Shown: piece after piece, positions 703 to 13,513 of the stretch
Layout of the letters: every line of letters begins with the position of its first letter
Numbering within the stretch: the stretch's first letter is position 1
DNA from: Candidatus Latescibacterota bacterium
GTDB taxonomy: Bacteria > Latescibacterota > UBA2968
Assembly (NCBI GenBank): GCA_965207885.1
Contig: OZ242311.1
Span: 1,888,001 to 1,952,000, forward strand
Direction of reading: 5' to 3'
Length of the DNA stretch: 64,000 bases
Made by a program: the position numbers and the translations under genes
Notes under the pieces: generated by a model
What the model saw: the letters and a program-made list of their open reading frames with translations, nothing else
What the model was told of the DNA's origin: nothing
Database searches by the model: none

Positions 703-888
703 TCACTTATCCCGATCATCAGCCTGATCAAAATCGTCCCAATCGTCATCGTCATTGGGAAAGGGGAGGGGAGGAACAGCTGTCCAAGATGGACATCCAA
801 TTTCTAAACTCGTAGTTCGATATGTCCGAATATCCCCCTCTGTATCTATAGTTCCATTGACCAGGGTCAACTTGCGTCGCGTTGCCAT
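703..888 (-). CDS. Putative RiPP precursor peptide (61 aa)
   Basis: RBS AAGGAGG; 23 bp upstream of the RRE-rSAM gene; leader RKLTLVNG resembles the KHIKILNG-type RRE-binding leader; core GCPSWTAVPPLPFP; acidic tail. Confidence 0.8.
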   Translation of the reverse strand: MATRRKLTLVNGTIDTEGDIRTYRTTSLEIGCPSWTAVPPLPFPNDDDDWDDFDQADDRDK

Positions 889-930
889 GTTATCCTCCTT
901 GTAAGAATCTAAATACCATCTGCCCTATAC

Positions 931-946
931 TGCAAAATGTGTGCCA
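931..946 (-). promoter_or_regulatory. sigma54 (-24/-12) promoter
   Basis: Minus strand reads TGGCAC-ACATT-TTGCA, matching TGGCAC-N5-TTGCW, about 40 bp upstream of the precursor start. Confidence 0.9.
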
Positions 947-1184: not shown

Positions 1185-4100
1185 CTATCTCAACCCCAGA
1201 CGATTAATCTTTTTATGCAGACCAACGCGCGTCATCCCCAATTCTCTGGCAGTATGCGTAATATTGTCCTCGCATTTCGCGAGCGCGTCTCGAATCAACC
1301 GTCTCTCATACTCCTGGACATGGTCTTGTAAACGCCCCTGGAATTCGACAGAGACATCTGGTACTGTATGCCCGATGGATTCTGAAAACAAATCGGGCGT
1401 AATATCACCCTCTTCTTCTGCCAATGCAACCGCACGCCGAATCTCATTCTCCAGCTCGCGCACATTGCCCGGCCAATTGTAATTTGTGAGTGCCCTGATA
1501 GCCCCCACTGTCAGCCCCCCAACCGACTTGTTGGCATCTTCTTTCGCCCGGGTGAGCAAATGTTTGGCCAATAACGGCACATCTTCAATATATTCCCGCA
1601 AAGGCGGCATATCGATCTGAATCACACGCAACCGGTAATACAAATCTTCGCGGAACGAGCCGTTTTCAACTTCTTTTTTTAAGTCTCGATTGGTCGCTGC
1701 AATAATGCGTACATCCACTGTGCGATCCACTGTTTCTCCAACACGCCGAATCTCCCCTTCCTGCAACACCCGCAACAAACTCCTTTGCAATTGCGGTGGG
1801 GCATCGGCGATTTCATCCAAAAAAACCGTCCCTCCATTGGCAGCCTCAAAAATCCCCTTATGATCTTCAGTCGCGCCAGTAAACGCCCCTTTTTTATGCC
1901 CAAACAACTCACTCTGCAACAACTCTGGTGAGAGTGTAGCACAATTTTGCGACAAAAACCGCTGGTCTTTGCGCGTACTATTGTAGTGTATGGCACGCGC
2001 AGCCAATTCTTTGCCCGTACCTGTTTCGCCTTGCACAAGCACGGAAACATCGCTCTTTGCAGCGCGTTCTATAAGTTGATAGATCGCCTGCATCGCATCG
2101 CTTTGTCCGAACATATCGCCAAGTTGATGCCGCCTTTCGACCTCTTGCTGCAAATATTGTGCTTTCTCTTCCAATTGTTCGTACATCCTCGCATTGACCA
2201 GCGCCATCCCCACCAGATTCGCAAATGCCTGCAAAAACGTCTGATCTGCTTCAGAAAATGCATTGCCAATGCCGCGATGATCCACATACAGAGCACCCAT
2301 CACACCCTCGTTCAGATGGAATACGGGCACAGACAATACAGATCGAATGTGGTAGTCTATCACGCTCTGGTAGCGATTGAGCCTTTCATCTATTTGGGCG
2401 TCCATACTCAAAACGGGTTCATTTGTTTCAATAACCCGACGAATAATACCCCGACTCAGTGCTTCTGCATCATCTGCTTCTACATTGTAGTAGCGCACGG
2501 CATCGACTGCAAAGCCTCGCGGAGTCTCATTTTTAATTGCAACAAGCACGCGCTCTGCTGAATAAACAGCCAACAAATTACCCAAAGTCCGGTCCAATAA
2601 TACTTTGACATCGCGTTCTGTGGTCAACTCCCGGCTCACATCGTAGAGCAAGCGCCAGCGATCAACAGATAAACTTTCAGAACTGGATGCGGCATTCTCG
2701 CCGCGAGAAGATTCACGCAATTGATTTAATAACACCCGTGTTTTCTCCAGAAAATAAGACATTTCCATTTCTTTAAACGCCTGTTTTGCCGCTTCGAGAT
2801 GTGCTTGCGCTTTTGGTACATCACCGCGCTGGAGATAAAACTCTCCAGCCATCAGCAATGCACGCGCCCAGTGATCGCCTTTGGACTCTCTTCGGCATTC
2901 AATCGCCTGCTCAAAAGCCTCTTCAGCCTCAGCTATCCGTCCTGCCTGAGCGAAAGCCGCACCAACACCGCAATACACCAGGGGCAATATGCCCGTGTAC
3001 ATACCCGATGTTTGCTGCGTACCTTCGCTGGCTCTTTCTGCCCATTCAAGTGCTTCTTCTGTATCTCCCATTCTCACAGCAGCCGTTGCTGCAATCGCAT
3101 AAGCGCGATAAATATAATCTTTGCGCGGTGTTTCCAAGAATCGCTCTGCTGAGGTCTCGACATATTCCAATGCCCCGGCAAAATCACCGCATTCCAGTGC
3201 CATTTCTCCCAGCCATAAAAAATTTACTGCCTCCCAGTACACAAACCCTCGCTTCTGCCACTCACCAATGACTTCATGGCAAACGGCTTCCGCACGATCA
3301 CGTTCACCCAGATAAAAATAAACTCTTTGAAGTAAATTGAGTACCCAAGTGCGCTGGTGCTCAAGTCCCTGTTGCTGAGATGTTTTTACAGTAGCTTCCA
3401 TACGTGCTTTGGCTGTCTTAAATTGAAATCCTATTAATGCAACCAAACCTTCTCGCCCCTGTATAAAAGCGTCCTTTTGTGGATCTTCCAGCACACGACG
3501 TTTCTCTATTTCCCGGCGCATATACGCAATCGCTTCCTCGTGCCGCCCAGACACATCGCACAAATAAGCCAAACTGCTTAATGCTTGAATTTCTCCGTCG
3601 AAATCACCGAGTTCCCGATAAAGCCGCAATGCCTCCAGCATATATTTTTCTGCTATTTCCCCATGTTGAAGTACGCTGTGAATACTACCTTCAGTCCACA
3701 AAATACGTGCCTTTAAATCATACCGATCATCGGGCAATAACGCCTTTGCCTCGTCTAAAAGTTTTAGTGCCCTATTGTGCTGACCACAATTGCGCAGCGC
3801 ATCTGCATAATCGCACAAAAATTCGACCGCATCTGCCTGTGATTTAAAAGCGTCATCCATCTGTTGCACAACTTCAAACCGTCTCAATGCCTGGCGATAA
3901 GCGTGTTTTGCCAATGCTTTTTTGCCCGATAGGCGCATATAATTCACAGCCTTATTTTGTTCTCCCGCCGCTACAAAATGATCTGCCAATGCTTCTGTCA
4001 ATTCTTCTGCATCTTCCGACTCTTCCAGAGCATTGCCAATTTCTCGATGTAACAGACGCCGCCGCACATCTTGCATGCGATCATAAATTGCCCGTCGATA

Positions 4101-5984
4101 CAAACCCTGTGAAAAACGATATCGCTCTTCATCGCCATAAGTAATTAACAGCCCTTCTGCAATCAGGTCTTCGAGCACATCCAACAACTCCAACTCATCA
4201 CCGAGCCAGATAGAAGCCAATAATTCCAAAGAAAAATCATTTAAAAAAACACACGCGTATTCCATTACCTGACGTTGCACCGCAGGAAGGGCAGTTATGC
4301 GCCTGTACAAAACCTCTGAAATATCATCGGACAACAAAGTTTCGGGAAATTCTCCCCACTGCCAATCGCCGTACACATTCTGCCAAACCACATCGGCATG
4401 CACCAGTGTCCTCACGGCCTCCACGACAAACAGGGGTTGCCCACCCGTTTCCCTGAACAGGGTTTGCAAGGCATCCGGCGGAATGGATCGCTCCCCCAAC
4501 ATCGACGCCGATAGATACCCCACCTCTTCTCGCGGTAGATCTTTCAACTGAATCCGGATCGCTTCAGAAAATTCATTGCTGTGTATAAAATTCTCAATTT
4601 CCTTTGGAATAGATTCCCTATTGGACCCTTGACAGGTCAGGCATAACAAAAATGGACACGGGTCTGGATCGCGCAACACATACTGCAAAAATTCCAGGGT
4701 CAATTCATCAAGCCATTGAATATCTTCCAAACACAACACAATGGGCTGTTTCTGCCGCAGGCGTTTTAATGACTGCAACCAGCGATCCATAACAGAAAAC
4801 TTGTCCGTCTCTAATGAATCGGGCACTCTCCCCACCAAATCCGTCGTCTTTACCCGCTGAAAAGCATCGATCAACGCACCGTATATTTGTCCACCCTCTT
4901 CCCGCCCTGCCCCTTTCAAACAAAGAAAATCGTGGATCAAAGCGTCACCCAATAATTCTTCAGCCAGTCTCGATTTGCCCACCCCTGCCTCACCCGAGAT
5001 CAAAACCACGCGCTGCTCGCCAGCTTGTACATCCCGCAACATCGCACGCAACGTCTTCATCTCGGATTCGCGCCCGACAAATTGCGGCCGCATCACTTTT
5101 CTATGCACATCGCGCTGCTCGTCATCCGGTAGCACAAACCCCGATGATGCCACACCATTTAACGCCTGCACCAGTTCTTCTGCCGACTGATAACGATCAA
5201 CAGGCTCCTTTGCCAGCAACTTCAGCACAATTTGTTGCGTCTGGGCCGGAACCTCGACATGGGCTTCAGCCATTGATGGCGGTGACTCTCGAATATGCTT
5301 CAAAATAACGGACACCGGGTTTTGTCCAGAAAAGGGCGGTGCGCCCGTGAGCATCTCATATAAAATCACGCCCAATGAATACAAATCTGACCGATGATCC
5401 ACCCATAACCCCTTACCCTGCTCTGGCGACATATACTCGGCGGTACCAATCGTCGCGCCCGTATGCGTAATGGAGGCACTATGCAGATGTCTAAATTTAG
5501 CCAACCCCAGATCCAGAATGGTAGTATCAATTCCCTCTTCAGTTTCCAAAACCATAATATTGGATGGCTTGAGATCGCGATGCACCGCACCCTGCGCGTG
5601 GACATAAGCCACCCCCTCGGCAATTTGTTGCATCAGAGCAAAAAAGGACGAAGCTCGGAATTGTCCCAACAATACGCGATCGGCTATTATTTTTTCCAAC
5701 GTCTTTCCGGGCAAATATTCCATCGTAAAATAGGGACGCTCCTCGGCAAAGCCCCAGGTGTATGTGCGCACCAGGCGCGGGTGCTCAAATCTGTTCAACA
5801 CCTGAAACTCTCTGTGAAAACGTCGATGCACAGACTTCTGATCCACCATCGTATTCAAAATTTTGAGCGCGCACTCCCGGTCTTGCTCCAGGTCTAACAC
5901 CCGATAAACTTCTCCCATGCCCCCGGTTCCCAGGTGCGCCTGGATTTGATACCTTTTGTCGAGAATGGTGTCGATTTTAAACAT
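1185..5984 (-). CDS. Ser/Thr kinase - AAA/STAND ATPase - TPR - GAF - sigma54 activator - Fis HTH fusion
   Basis: Kinase GTGGMG, ALK, HRDLKPSN, DLG, YMSPEQ; GEAGVGKS + LEDIQW; TPR-like helices; GAF (IRSVLSVP, GALYVD); GETGTGKE, GAFTGA, FLDEI, WPGNVREL; C-terminal HTH. Confidence 0.93.
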   Translation of the reverse strand: MFKIDTILDKRYQIQAHLGTGGMGEVYRVLDLEQDRECALKILNTMVDQKSVHRRFHREFQVLNRFEHPRLVRTYTWGFAEERPYFTMEYLPGKTLEKIIADRVLLGQFRASSFFALMQQIAEGVAYVHAQGAVHRDLKPSNIMVLETEEGIDTTILDLGLAKFRHLHSASITHTGATIGTAEYMSPEQGKGLWVDHRSDLYSLGVILYEMLTGAPPFSGQNPVSVILKHIRESPPSMAEAHVEVPAQTQQIVLKLLAKEPVDRYQSAEELVQALNGVASSGFVLPDDEQRDVHRKVMRPQFVGRESEMKTLRAMLRDVQAGEQRVVLISGEAGVGKSRLAEELLGDALIHDFLCLKGAGREEGGQIYGALIDAFQRVKTTDLVGRVPDSLETDKFSVMDRWLQSLKRLRQKQPIVLCLEDIQWLDELTLEFLQYVLRDPDPCPFLLCLTCQGSNRESIPKEIENFIHSNEFSEAIRIQLKDLPREEVGYLSASMLGERSIPPDALQTLFRETGGQPLFVVEAVRTLVHADVVWQNVYGDWQWGEFPETLLSDDISEVLYRRITALPAVQRQVMEYACVFLNDFSLELLASIWLGDELELLDVLEDLIAEGLLITYGDEERYRFSQGLYRRAIYDRMQDVRRRLLHREIGNALEESEDAEELTEALADHFVAAGEQNKAVNYMRLSGKKALAKHAYRQALRRFEVVQQMDDAFKSQADAVEFLCDYADALRNCGQHNRALKLLDEAKALLPDDRYDLKARILWTEGSIHSVLQHGEIAEKYMLEALRLYRELGDFDGEIQALSSLAYLCDVSGRHEEAIAYMRREIEKRRVLEDPQKDAFIQGREGLVALIGFQFKTAKARMEATVKTSQQQGLEHQRTWVLNLLQRVYFYLGERDRAEAVCHEVIGEWQKRGFVYWEAVNFLWLGEMALECGDFAGALEYVETSAERFLETPRKDYIYRAYAIAATAAVRMGDTEEALEWAERASEGTQQTSGMYTGILPLVYCGVGAAFAQAGRIAEAEEAFEQAIECRRESKGDHWARALLMAGEFYLQRGDVPKAQAHLEAAKQAFKEMEMSYFLEKTRVLLNQLRESSRGENAASSSESLSVDRWRLLYDVSRELTTERDVKVLLDRTLGNLLAVYSAERVLVAIKNETPRGFAVDAVRYYNVEADDAEALSRGIIRRVIETNEPVLSMDAQIDERLNRYQSVIDYHIRSVLSVPVFHLNEGVMGALYVDHRGIGNAFSEADQTFLQAFANLVGMALVNARMYEQLEEKAQYLQQEVERRHQLGDMFGQSDAMQAIYQLIERAAKSDVSVLVQGETGTGKELAARAIHYNSTRKDQRFLSQNCATLSPELLQSELFGHKKGAFTGATEDHKGIFEAANGGTVFLDEIADAPPQLQRSLLRVLQEGEIRRVGETVDRTVDVRIIAATNRDLKKEVENGSFREDLYYRLRVIQIDMPPLREYIEDVPLLAKHLLTRAKEDANKSVGGLTVGAIRALTNYNWPGNVRELENEIRRAVALAEEEGDITPDLFSESIGHTVPDVSVEFQGRLQDHVQEYERRLIRDALAKCEDNITHTARELGMTRVGLHKKINRLGLR

Positions 5985-6109
5985 GACCTCTTCTACTTTC
6001 TTCAGATCAACAGGTTCGACGATGTAACTACGGGGCAGTCATTCGCAACCCCGTTTCCAAAGTGATATTCGAATGGGCATAATATCAATTACTTAATTAA
6101 CAGTATATT

Positions 6110-6157
6110 ATAATAAGAGCGATATATCGTCCTAATATACAATATATCGCCCTTATT
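6110..6157. promoter_or_regulatory. Inverted repeat upstream of the kinase-bEBP gene
   Basis: AATAAGAGCGATATAT ... ATATATCGCCCTTATT in an AT-rich intergenic region. Confidence 0.35.
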
Positions 6158-6221
6158 AGAGAGAACAAGTCTATTTTTAATTAAAATAGCCGAACCGGTT
6201 ATCCAGCAATCATTATATTTT

Positions 6222-7226
6222 TCAATGCATCAAATTCATGATTTTTCCAACCTTTTTTGCGACACGGGGCGCAGTTAGCTCTGTTGTATTTTTCAGACCC
6301 ATCAAAAAACGGCGGGCAGAGTCATCAAACGACAGGCGATGCTGCGCAACATGTGTTTCCAGCATATCCAGATCGCGCAACACCTCGTCCTGTAGCGCAG
6401 GAAGGGGCATCATCCACAAACGCCTCAACAGCGTCTTCATAATCAAAATCGGGTCATGCGGATCTTGAGCCAAACGACTGTAAAAAGCCTCCAGGGGCAA
6501 TTCCCAATACAACTTCTGCACAATAAGCCCCAGATATTCCCGGTTCTTCCTGGCAATATCGCTCGCAGAAAAGCGATCAGACGCCGAACCTCTATCACCC
6601 TCATGCATGCGACATCGAAGCGTGGGTTGTTTGATAATCCCTATCTTAAACCCGGCGCGTATCATGCGAATCCACATATCGTAATCTTGCCCGCGAATCA
6701 AACGCTCGTCAAAACAGCCGACCCTGTCATAACACGACCGATGGGCAACCACAGTTGGACTACACAATTCAAACCGCCCGAACAAATACATCACCATATC
6801 GCCTATAGGCGGCATCCTCGCTTCAAAAGACCGCACGGGCACATCGCTTCTCTCTCCCTCTATAAATTCATAACCCGTATAGACAAACTTCAAATCCGGA
6901 TCTTCTGCAAACTGCGCCGCGTGCAACTCGAGCTTATTCGGCAACCCGATATCATCATCGTCCAAAATCCAAACATACTCCCCCGTCAAGTATTTCAGAC
7001 CCATATTCACAGCAGACGCCTTCCCACCATTTGCCTTTTCCATATAGCGAATCCGATCTCCAAACCGCCTGATCACCTCTGCCGTATCATCCGTAGAACC
7101 ATCGTTCACCACAATGAGTTCAAAACCCTGATACGTCTGTTTCAAAACGCTCTCAACAGCCTCCGCAACATAATTTGCGCGATTATATGTTGGGATAATC
7201 ACCGAAAATTTTGGATTTTGTGTCAA
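6222..7226 (-). CDS. Glycosyltransferase family 2
   Basis: SVIIPTYN, VVNDGSTD, LDDDD, QDYDMW; probable TTG start at 7226 after AAGAGG. Confidence 0.88.
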   Translation of the reverse strand: MTQNPKFSVIIPTYNRANYVAEAVESVLKQTYQGFELIVVNDGSTDDTAEVIRRFGDRIRYMEKANGGKASAVNMGLKYLTGEYVWILDDDDIGLPNKLELHAAQFAEDPDLKFVYTGYEFIEGERSDVPVRSFEARMPPIGDMVMYLFGRFELCSPTVVAHRSCYDRVGCFDERLIRGQDYDMWIRMIRAGFKIGIIKQPTLRCRMHEGDRGSASDRFSASDIARKNREYLGLIVQKLYWELPLEAFYSRLAQDPHDPILIMKTLLRRLWMMPLPALQDEVLRDLDMLETHVAQHRLSFDDSARRFLMGLKNTTELTAPRVAKKVGKIMNLMH

Positions 7227-11956: not shown

Positions 11957-13420
11957 CTATCTCGGTGGAGAATACGTCTTTGCCGGGATCGCCCGATAAA
12001 TCTCGAGCTTCTCTCGATCTAATCGTTCTCTAATTCCACTCAAGTGCGTCTCGATCAAATCTCGCCGCACAGATTCCAGATCGGGATCCTCAAACACATT
12101 ATTCAGTTCATAGGGATCATTTTGACAATCGTACATCTCAACCGGCTTCTCAGACACAGATTCAACCACCAGCTTGTATCGCCCATCAAAAACCATCGTA
12201 AACCCATCGACCTCACTAAACACAGCGTCTTTGCCCTTTTGCGCGCCATCGGCATCCGGACCTGCCAACACCTGAGACACAAACGAAACCCCATCGCTAT
12301 TCTCCAAAGACTCTGCCCCTGCAACATCTAAAATCGTAGCCGTGATATTCAGGCAATCCGTCAGTCCTTCAGACGTCCACCCCGCCTGTCCCCCCGCAGG
12401 ACGCACAACCAGAGGCACCCGTACAGCCATATCGTAAAACACGCCTTTGTGGCTCAATCGATGATCCCCAGCCATCTCACCGTGATCCGAACTGTAAATA
12501 ATCCAGGTATTGTCCAACATGCCCTTTGCCTCAAGAGCTTCGATAATACCCCCAATCGCATTGTCGATCAACGTAATCTTTGCATAATAATTGATAACCA
12601 GTTGTTTCTTTTCCTCTTCGGTCATCGTTTTGGCATCGCCAGCGCGAAAGAGCGACCGCACAATATATTTGGGATACGGTTCTCTGGGCAAATCCATAAT
12701 ACCCACAGGAATATCATCCATACTGTACATATCCCGATATTCCTGTGGCGAATCAAAGGGATTGTGCGGCCCTGGAAACAGCACCTGCAGATAGAACGGC
12801 TTGTCCCCATCGTAATCGCGCACCCATTCTGCGGCCGTACGCCCGGTATAACTGTCCAGATGGCTTTCAGAAGGCAATGGACAGGGCGGATCCTCCCACG
12901 CCCGTGCCCTGCCCTCTTCCAGGCGCGTCTTTGACCTGACCACATAATCTCGATGCGTCTCCCACAAACCCAATTCTTCGAGATAATCCGAATACTGCGA
13001 TTTGTTTACCCCCGATGCGTGTGGACCGTGCATCTCTTGAATATCTACAAACCCCCAATTTTCCAATATTGCCGTCTTTTCCTGACTTTTTGTTCCACCC
13101 GTGTGCGTATATAAGTGAGTCTTGCCCACCAGGGCAGTATGATAGCCCGCATCGCGCACATTTCGCACATGACTGGGACCGTGCTGATCGGCCTCAACAA
13201 CATTCTGCCAGACACCGTGTTCCCGCACGTACTGCCCCGTCATCATCGTCGCGCGCGCAGGCATACAAATCGGCCCATTGGTATAACACTGGCTAAACAC
13301 CACCCCCTCGGACCCCAGGCGATCCAGATGTGGTGTTTTGATCACTGGATGCCCGGCGCACCCCACCGCATCACCGCGATGCTGATCCGAATATATGAAA
13401 ACAATATTGGGTTTTGACAT
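11957..13420 (-). CDS. Formylglycine-dependent sulfatase
   Basis: KPNIVFIYSDQHR, CMPAR, GKTH, SDHG. Confidence 0.93.
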   Translation of the reverse strand: MSKPNIVFIYSDQHRGDAVGCAGHPVIKTPHLDRLGSEGVVFSQCYTNGPICMPARATMMTGQYVREHGVWQNVVEADQHGPSHVRNVRDAGYHTALVGKTHLYTHTGGTKSQEKTAILENWGFVDIQEMHGPHASGVNKSQYSDYLEELGLWETHRDYVVRSKTRLEEGRARAWEDPPCPLPSESHLDSYTGRTAAEWVRDYDGDKPFYLQVLFPGPHNPFDSPQEYRDMYSMDDIPVGIMDLPREPYPKYIVRSLFRAGDAKTMTEEEKKQLVINYYAKITLIDNAIGGIIEALEAKGMLDNTWIIYSSDHGEMAGDHRLSHKGVFYDMAVRVPLVVRPAGGQAGWTSEGLTDCLNITATILDVAGAESLENSDGVSFVSQVLAGPDADGAQKGKDAVFSEVDGFTMVFDGRYKLVVESVSEKPVEMYDCQNDPYELNNVFEDPDLESVRRDLIETHLSGIRERLDREKLEIYRAIPAKTYSPPR

Positions 13421-13513
13421 ACACACCTCCAGTAAAGAACCCGGACAACTCTATCTTGCAATACTTCAATTTGTTCCTGTTGCTCTAAGGAAGATAATAC
13501 GCTATATTTTTCT

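Follow-up and report, generated by a model that had tools for sequence, protein, structure and literature searches.

Peptides with thioether bridges are sorted by the carbon that receives the cysteine sulfur, the alpha carbon in the sactipeptide class and the beta or gamma carbon in the ranthipeptide class. In the SCIFF system of Bacillota (ScfB/CteB, TIGR03974), loci are two-gene cores in which a short precursor stands directly upstream of an RRE-bearing radical-SAM/SPASM enzyme, and the precursor carries six cysteines in its C-terminal ~45 residues together with the core GGCGECQTSCQSACKTSC. PapA, the precursor handled by PapB (freyrasin), is built of repeated Cys-X3-Asp units, and its rings have that same spacing; QhpC, the partner of QhpD, carries Cys-Asp/Glu links and a Cys-Trp quinone. 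The streptococcal or enterococcal NxxcA and KgrA/enteropeptin (sactipeptide) systems stand under quorum-sensing regulators of another type than the regulator described below, and the sulfatase substrates of anSME carry the motif Cys/Ser-x-Pro/Ala-x-Arg (CxPxR). According to passages of PMC8326336, QhpD makes Cys-Asp links at C-beta and Cys-Glu links at C-gamma, SCIFF maturases resemble QhpD, SCIFFs are tabulated as quorum-sensing-related, and NxxcA is a single-Cys thioether RiPP with an Asn-x-x-Cys motif and a C-beta link. KgrA appears as a further single-Cys thioether RiPP in passages of PMC10288494, where it is also held that the function of radical-SAM enzymes cannot be read from about 30% identity. 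In published passages on the nearest families, the acceptors are Asp or Glu (QhpD, PapB), Thr (SCIFF) and Asn (NxxcA).

We analysed a window of 64,000 nucleotides (G000:C1:1888001-1952000) from a genome of Candidatus Latescibacterota, to our knowledge a candidate phylum without cultured members. Its minus strand encodes, at 703-888, a peptide of 61 residues followed by a stop codon, next to a radical-SAM/SPASM maturase gene. We propose, with a probability of about 0.6, that this peptide is a sigma-54-driven RiPP precursor on which the maturase closes one thioether macrocycle at Cys32, displaying a variable loop. The first-pass annotation had singled out the reading frame for its single cysteine and its Pro-rich and acidic stretches, and the peptide that it quoted is the exact translation.

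The peptide (all parts on the minus strand) opens with a basic leader (residues 1-31; 796-888) and continues with its sole cysteine, Cys32 (codon 793-795), 5-6 hypervariable residues, here PSWTA (778-792), an invariant VPPLPFP (757-777; VPPxPFP in the family), an acidic block, NDDDDWDDF (730-756), of which DDDDWDDF recurs across the family, and a short variable tail (706-729). A strong Shine-Dalgarno element, AAGGAGGA (893-900, minus strand), lies 4 nt ahead of the ATG, and its A/G-AGGAG core is kept in 18/18 loci. A profile made from the three copies in this genome retrieved 248 clusters at 90% identity from the protein collection (E ≤ 0.1); the best 120 of these 248 are 57-87 residues long and none has a name. 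Among these 120 aligned members, M1, L7, N11, G12, C32, P39, P42, F43 and P44 are invariant, and T3, K6, T8, L9, E17, G18, I20, V38 and P40 are at least 90% conserved, as are D47-49, W50, D51 and F53 of the acidic block. The leader consensus in the genus is MxTRRKLTLINGxI..EG.I. Many members read Cys-x-Pro and some carry a Gly-Gly-Cys junction.

One genus of Candidatus Latescibacterota holds 38 strong copies (E ≤ 1.1e-14), spread over 16 of its 21 genomes, namely the window's own genome and 15 of the 20 other members, an average of about 2.4 per genome. The 40 genomes of other genera among the 61 related genomes scanned gave no match better than E 0.02. Two further copies of the locus, at ~80% DNA identity, lie in the same genome; its three precursors are 59-62 residues long, and the other two are 70-75% identical to the window peptide. 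In a codon alignment of 18 genes, L9, I20, the cysteine, three prolines, the phenylalanine and the Asp run show no nonsynonymous pairs, with synonymous pairs at 0.2-0.66 of the same codons. Nonsynonymous change peaks in the 5-6 residues that follow the cysteine (0.38-0.84 of pairs), and a second zone covers leader columns 21-31. The maturase is far better conserved across loci (88-93% amino-acid identity) than the 18 peptides are among themselves. The precursor has no match in Pfam and none at E ≤ 1 among the NCBIfam precursor models. We conclude from the codon pattern that the reading frame is a real gene under selection at the protein level, and from the alignment that it founds an unnamed precursor family with a RiPP-type layout of conserved leader, hypervariable core and one invariant cysteine.

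The 5' part of the maturase gene occupies 2-679 on the minus strand, with a probable ATG at 677-679, 23 nt beyond the precursor stop; the gene runs past the left edge of the window, and its full length is L006:11249-12679, minus strand. We number its residues by a 469-residue translation that begins at window base 658. The enzyme carries Radical_SAM and SPASM domains and, at its N-terminus, a weak PqqD/RRE-like match (E 0.0062, 17.3 bits; Pfam cut-off 23.4). The CX3CX2C motif (C109/C113/C116) and seven SPASM cysteines (C346/364/402/405/411/415/434) are invariant in 43 aligned sequences. The weak RRE match, CX3CX2C, SPASM domain and adjacent precursor together place it among RRE-dependent radical-SAM/SPASM RiPP maturases in the broad sense. 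Its best family score, 264.9 bits, is to the SCIFF maturase TIGR03974 (cut-off 425), followed by QhpD (262.2; cut-off 453), the Nif11-type maturase (256) and PapB (229.8; cut-off 340), neither these cut-offs nor that of any other curated family being reached. Lower scores were obtained for anSME (114 bits, below its cut-off of 349) and the sactisynthase models RumMC (108) and GggB (73); cyclophane (YhhB, FxsB, AmcB), ether (DynA) and anSME models are significant at 56-114 bits. The NxxcB model is not among the listed matches. The nearest solved structure is 5WGG/5WHY (207 bits), which we take to be CteB, a SCIFF maturase. Since the top family scores all go to formers of Cys thioethers, the Cys-centred thioether suggested by the first-pass annotation stands as the best guess.

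Among 1.84 billion representatives the maturase is isolated: its best match is 59% identical, full-length relatives follow at 43% and 40% and fragmentary ones at 42-43%, and the bulk begins at about 30%. A metagenome scan for the loci of the 40-43% relatives (P0123 and P0124) returned, among the matches listed, only relatives of ~26-32% identity. Two cysteines are specific to the enzyme's clade: Cys343, in a CxGC motif, is found in 5 of 6 clade members and Cys448 in all 6, compared with 0 of 37 other relatives in each case. They could fully ligate auxiliary cluster I or alter the reaction. A complex of maturase and precursor was predicted with a median score of 0.54, the best of three controls scoring 0.00, and weakly backs the pairing. 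Of 157 solved complexes 116 reach the mark applied, as do 2 of 215 mismatched pairs, but scores of 0.60 or less include only 18 of those 157 and both passing mismatches. Contacts agreed between runs to at least 65% and the partner pLDDT was at least 48; a similar complex has already been solved, so the pass may be memory.

Precursor and maturase are paired, behind the regulator and in the order regulator, precursor, maturase, in 18/18 loci (3 in this genome and 15 in other genomes, two of them cut by contig ends), and the pairing recurs in five other genera. Across the phylum, 24 of the 168 genomes scanned, from 6 of 49 genera, carry the enzyme clade, and a scan of the genome collection with the maturase gave only three loci at 50% identity or more. 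A short ORF lies upstream of the enzyme in 10 of 11 divergent loci, the eleventh, L210 (G028), starting at a contig edge without upstream DNA. These distant precursors, whose enzymes fall to ~43% identity, share a related basic leader, a single cysteine and a Pro/aromatic-rich stretch after it. Their cores read C-x-W-P-x-F-P-x-L-P-P-P in g7, T-L-S-C-(D/Y)-P-x-(F/Y)-P in g13 and g16, T-L-S-C-D-D-G-F-Y-Y-P in g2 and S-L-S-C-S-Y-N-G-H-N-F in g6; the g7 precursor used as a query retrieved one near-identical protein only. The cysteine is the sole core residue common to all 10 distant precursors and the 120 aligned genus members. The first-pass annotation had asked whether short ORFs beside radical-SAM homologs are conserved; they are, and the cysteine is their invariant core residue, which bears out its reading of a RiPP-type precursor with a radical-SAM maturase. 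Within the window's genus the acidic stretch, which the first-pass annotation took as a possible follower or protease-recognition element, is nearly invariant, but none of the 10 distant precursors has the poly-Asp block; it is thus dispensable for the enzyme clade as a whole. The regulator gene lies upstream in all six g7 loci and in g16, g13 and g6, the g2 locus (L212) being the exception, and a -24/-12 element can be made out in four g7 loci. In genera other than the window's, another radical-SAM gene, distant in sequence (about 25% identity), stands after the maturase gene.

We compared the family with 39 genuine SCIFF precursors extracted from Bacillota loci. The first-pass annotation had likened the leader to that of SCIFF, and a short motif, (K/R)-H-(I/L/M)-(K/R)-x-(L/I/V)-N, is indeed common to SCIFFs and the distant Latescibacterota precursors. 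The strict form, H[ILMV][KR].[LIV]N, occurs in 8 of the 39 SCIFFs, in 0 of 120 members of the window's genus, in 4 of 4 precursors from g6, g16, g13 and g2 and in 0 of 6 from g7; a looser form occurs in 18 of 39, 106 of 120, 2 of 4 and 4 of 6, respectively. Comparison of whole profiles with hhalign was null (probability 0.02%, E 0.98, with a higher score for the reversed control), and we reject kinship at the profile level. The resemblance of the leaders, as a match of residues, is real at the motif level only. The SCIFF core is almost invariant in the 39 extracted precursors, whereas the Latescibacterota core is hypervariable and has one cysteine instead of six, and the window enzyme is about 30% identical to the SCIFF maturase and below its cut-off. 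The cassette of the window's genus also differs in its host phylum, its acidic tail, its clade-specific extra cysteines and its control by sigma-54 and a kinase-type activator. It shares with SCIFF the short precursor directly upstream of an RRE-bearing enzyme and, in some members, the Gly-Gly-Cys junction.

The other described systems differ in comparable ways. PapA/PapB and QhpC/QhpD belong to the same enzyme clade and set a cysteine ahead of a conserved C-terminal Asp, a documented type of acceptor. In contrast to the Cys-X3-Asp repeats of PapA, the window peptide has a single cysteine and an Asp run at least 14 residues away, the nearest Asp lying 14 residues from Cys32, and the enzyme scores 229.8 against the 340 bits of PapB. 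For QhpD the score is 262.2 against 453 bits, and no amine-dehydrogenase gene was found among the scanned neighbours. Exclusion of SCIFF and PapA by the first-pass annotation agrees with the single cysteine, the lack of an NCBIfam precursor match and the enzyme scores below both cut-offs. NxxcA and KgrA are similar in that a RiPP class can rest on one cysteine and a single thioether ring, but their precursor sequences are unrelated to the Latescibacterota peptide. Asn stands at -3 from the cysteine in none of 18 aligned genes; the residue is Glu in the window peptide (S-L-E-I-G-C) and in 15 of 18 loci. An anSME substrate is likewise not indicated, given that Arg is absent at +4, the position of Pro varies and the score is 114 against 349 bits. 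The locus is most likely a new variant within the RRE-dependent radical-SAM/SPASM thioether peptides, ranthipeptide- or sactipeptide-like and distinct from SCIFF, PapA, QhpC and NxxC. The evidence pointing to the ranthipeptide class, with sulfur bound to C-beta or C-gamma, is the clade affinity of the enzyme.

In the proposed mechanism, the kinase/STAND/TPR/GAF activator, bound to three upstream palindromes and activated by a signal, would switch on transcription from the sigma-54 promoter, and one message would yield both precursor and maturase. The basic leader would dock on the N-terminal RRE-like domain of the maturase, the radical-SAM core would take a hydrogen from the acceptor, and Cys32 would close the single thioether macrocycle. 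The ring, or a scaffold around it, would then present the 5-6 hypervariable residues after the cysteine, and the leader would be removed and the product exported. The acceptor most probably lies within the invariant C-terminal block. By analogy with the C-beta links of QhpD and PapB, the likeliest candidate is an Asp of the DDDD run, which would give a ring of 14-17 residues from Cys32, larger than the Cys-X3-Asp ring of PapA. This long spacing and the absence of the run in other genera call for caution. The Asp idea is further weakened for the clade as a whole because the distant precursors lack the poly-Asp block and carry acidic residues at variable distances from the cysteine; we found no acceptor conserved across genera. 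Our second choice is a residue of V38-P44, for which a ring of 6-12 residues would enclose exactly the hypervariable positions. W35, the Trp of CPSWT, was considered as a reactive residue and rejected: it sits in the hypervariable loop and varies among the aligned genus members, which speaks against the Trp-centred chemistry at CPSWT entertained by the first-pass annotation. The Trp that is conserved is W50, within the acidic block.

Macrocyclisation at Cys32 has to be weighed against a different radical reaction, such as a C-C or C-O cross-link (cyclophane or ether) on F43, W50, F53 or Pro39/42/44, with the cysteine serving only as a cluster ligand or recognition residue, or else epimerisation or a conversion of the cysteine through oxidation to a formylglycine-like residue, the reaction of anSME. 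The SPASM clade harbours more than one function, its cyclophane, ether and anSME models do score 56-114 bits, and the enzyme's clade has extra cysteines of its own. On the peptide side, F43 and three prolines (P39, P42 and P44) never vary and W50 is conserved to at least 90%; in the distant precursors, Trp, Phe, Tyr and Pro abound directly after the cysteine, and the frequent Cys-x-Pro resembles the CxPxR motif of sulfatases. However, the four to five top scores belong to Cys-thioether formers and come to at least double those of the cyclophane, ether and anSME models, and only the cysteine is kept in every precursor core over 43-100% enzyme identity. For an anSME-like reaction in particular, Pro stands at +1 or +2 of the cysteine, varying among members, and Arg does not follow. 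We consider a reaction of another kind unlikely.

Instead of a diffusible product, the peptide might give rise to a redox cofactor or a subunit of an enzyme, comparable to PqqA, MftA or QhpC. QhpD ranks second among the families at 262 bits, the cassette comes without transporter or protease, and the peptide has one cysteine, an Asp run and a conserved Trp, the kinds of residue that QhpC links. Such precursors are single-copy and invariant, however, whereas here there are ~2.4 copies per genome with a hypervariable core; the enzyme remains below the QhpD cut-off (262 against 453), and the scanned neighbours include no dehydrogenase subunit, amine dehydrogenase or other, and no cofactor-pathway gene. 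A cofactor role is thus very improbable. Even less credit is due to the idea that the frame is open by chance or lies in a non-coding leader of the radical-SAM operon, which we regard as practically negligible: the ORF is short, and Pfam, NCBIfam and an Atlas feature search gave no usable match, but there are 248 homologous proteins, the conserved codons change only synonymously, the Shine-Dalgarno element is strong and conserved, and equivalent ORFs exist in five other genera.

The thioether precursor that we favour is preceded by a gene for a regulator of 1599 residues (1185-5984, minus strand). Pfam assigns to it a protein kinase domain (Pkinase, 1e-49), a STAND-type AAA_16 domain, TPR and GAF domains, a sigma-54 AAA+ domain (Sigma54_activat, 7e-75) and a Fis-type HTH (HTH_8). 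Its gene ends in an intrinsic terminator at 957-993 on the minus strand (stem 967-993, then a T-run), which is conserved and lies just upstream of a sigma-54 (-24/-12) promoter, TGGCACacattTTGCA (931-946, minus strand). This is the only perfect match in the 64-kb window, in which 0.06 would be expected by chance, and GGCAC-N5-TTGC is invariant across 18/18 aligned regions upstream of the precursor. A scan of the region for sigma-70 promoters remained at background, with 6 found versus 6.7 expected. Regulator and precursor are separated by 300 nt that align well among loci and contain a proximal palindrome of the type GTGTATCC-N4-ATATACAC (1053-1076), about 110-130 nt upstream of the promoter, and two more overlapping copies, recognised in the upstream alignment, at 1133-1156 and 1152-1175 (span 1133-1175). 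The genome encodes rpoN (424 bits, over the cut-off). With a GG-N10-GC promoter, three palindromes, an adjacent AAA+ activator with an HTH, and rpoN all present, the precursor operon reads as sigma-54-dependent and the regulator as its cognate enhancer-binding protein.

The recognition helix TRAGLQKK pairs with GTGCAT palindromes in 9/9 loci, and TRVGLHKK or xR(I/A)SLYRK pairs with GTGTAT palindromes in 8/8, a perfect covariation of half-site type and helix over 17/17 loci that are related and not independent. Because the kind of palindrome tracks the recognition helix without exception, the regulator is tied to the precursor promoter. The three regulators of this genome are 81-83% identical overall, three-way identity being lowest just ahead of the HTH (0.40) and in two TPR windows (0.48-0.52). 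Co-diversification of the regulator with the peptide loop is suggested by this divergence, too weakly to be claimed.

The scanned neighbourhoods of the cassettes hold a methyltransferase-like protein, an AraC-type regulator and proteins without a family assignment; no conserved protease or exporter gene was found in them. A weakly Methyltransf_24-like protein (E 0.003, below the cut-off) follows the maturase in 2 of the 3 cassettes of this genome and in one cassette each of 10 of the 20 other genomes of the genus. We considered it as a fourth core gene and discarded that idea: it is missing from other cassettes and a solo copy exists, so it is accessory. Contigs assembled from three RNA libraries, all of one study and labelled sponge metagenome, resemble parts of 1-792 at a likeness of 88% or more, mostly 90-95%, and hence come from relatives. 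Two of them span 633-765, over the junction of precursor and maturase, and give a weak hint of expression; such contigs cannot prove a transcript and may derive from DNA. No RNA-library contig matched 793-1188 at 88% or more, an absence that carries no weight.

Clusters labelled 'ranthipeptide' are listed for sponge-associated Latescibacterota MAGs in passages of two antiSMASH surveys (PMC12993501, PMC11832590), which give the class label and no description of a precursor, single cysteine, loop, multiple cassettes or regulator. These calls are probably the same clusters as the present cassette or related ones. Our searches returned no literature on a precursor family with a single cysteine and a loop, in multiple cassettes under a sigma-54/kinase regulator. 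They likewise returned none joining 'ranthipeptide' and 'sigma-54', none on an enhancer-binding protein with a protein kinase domain and TPR, and, by titles and abstract openings, nothing on this system under Latescibacter, radical SAM and RiPP. No characterised natural product from Latescibacterota was found in the literature searched.

We favour a role in signalling or antagonism, with diversifying pressure on the peptide, over a cofactor, because the core is hypervariable, each genome holds 2-3 cassettes, and every cassette has its own sensor-regulator and DNA-site variant. A bolder and rather doubtful extension is that each cassette forms a private circuit, in which the modified peptide, with a 5-6-residue loop that varies from one cassette and strain to another, is sensed, directly or indirectly, by the kinase/STAND/TPR/GAF half of its own activator, closing an autoregulatory loop on an orthogonal channel. 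The distinct DNA sites and helices would then mark pherotype-like channels in sponge-associated Latescibacterota. TPR clamps bind acidic C-terminal peptides, and the genus-specific acidic C-terminus DDDDWDDF would be a handle bound by the TPR module.

The family supplies an undescribed type of precursor for a maturase placed between known thioether-forming families. The chemistry itself may be new: an enzyme whose auxiliary cluster is fully ligated might close a very large Cys-Asp ring, or join the cysteine to Pro, Val or Phe by a thioether. The 248 natural variants of the family, with a fixed cysteine and a short hypervariable loop in a rigid Pro-rich and acidic frame, are a ready test of the enzyme's tolerance and of the acceptor, and there is practical interest in such enzymes as tools to macrocyclise peptides. 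For the biology of these bacteria, the locus couples a RiPP to a giant kinase-plus-sigma-54 activator whose DNA-site and helix variants look orthogonal. Should the peptide indeed act on its own regulator, the circuit would represent a novel form of peptide signalling among symbionts.

Comparison of the loci that carry these cassettes (L006 to L024) revealed that the regulator and the palindromic upstream sites, which in the window occupy positions 1053–1175, come in two matched variants. Regulators whose HTH recognition helix, within residues about 1570–1599, is of the A..Q type are paired with GTGCAT palindromes, and those with a V..H (or S.Y) helix are paired with GTGTAT. Helix type matched palindrome type in 17 of 17 loci, which suggests that the regulator/site pairs of paralogous cassettes are orthogonal.

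The terminator, the promoter and one activator site recur, at 77% identity, elsewhere in the window's genome, in locus L004 (contig 1, 5797123–5800326; match at about 1501–1704 of the locus). This copy is directed at a 253-amino-acid protein with a signal-peptide-like N-terminus (L004 538–1299, − strand), which may be an additional target of the cassette regulators.

The genes that follow the maturase differ between cassettes. Of the three cassettes in the window's genome, two have a Methyltransf_24-like gene in this place (L006:10192–11100 and L007:7644–8351, both − strand); 10 of the 20 other genomes of the genus likewise have one cassette with this gene. The encoded protein, of about 300 amino acids, matches Methyltransf_24 weakly (E = 0.003) and has an LEFGGGPSS motif. 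The third copy in the window's genome (L005:1954–2847, +) is solo; in front of it are a response-regulator activator of the NtrC type and a stretch that resembles the terminator/promoter region. In the third cassette of this genome, two other genes come after the maturase (L008:8376–12708, +): the first encodes a stand-alone sigma-54 activator of 340 amino acids without a sensor domain, and the second a 1093-amino-acid protein in which a TIGR00375-family domain is fused to a UvrD/PcrA-type helicase. Judged from the look of their translations only, putative insertion-sequence transposase genes (L006:6498–7690, +; L006:3301–4026, −; L007:6669–7539, −) lie a few kilobases beyond two of this genome's three cassettes, on the downstream side, consistent with the variation in downstream gene content between cassettes. 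Elsewhere in the window, an ORF of 489 amino acids (11957–13426, −) appeared sulfatase-like when its translation was inspected by eye.

Disruption or mis-assembly may affect some cassette copies. In genome G058 (L209), the precursor is spread over two reading frames, with the leader in one and the Cys core in another; the maturase match of G021 (L212) is likewise split over two frames, and one precursor copy of G006 (contig 1, 3979729–3979890) contains a TAG.

Outside the window's genus, the cassettes encode a second radical-SAM enzyme directly downstream (5524–7005, +, in L030/L189; likewise in L208, L210 and L212), with a PqqD-like N-terminus and about 25% identity to the first. Given this additional enzyme, the peptides of those cassettes may receive two modifications.
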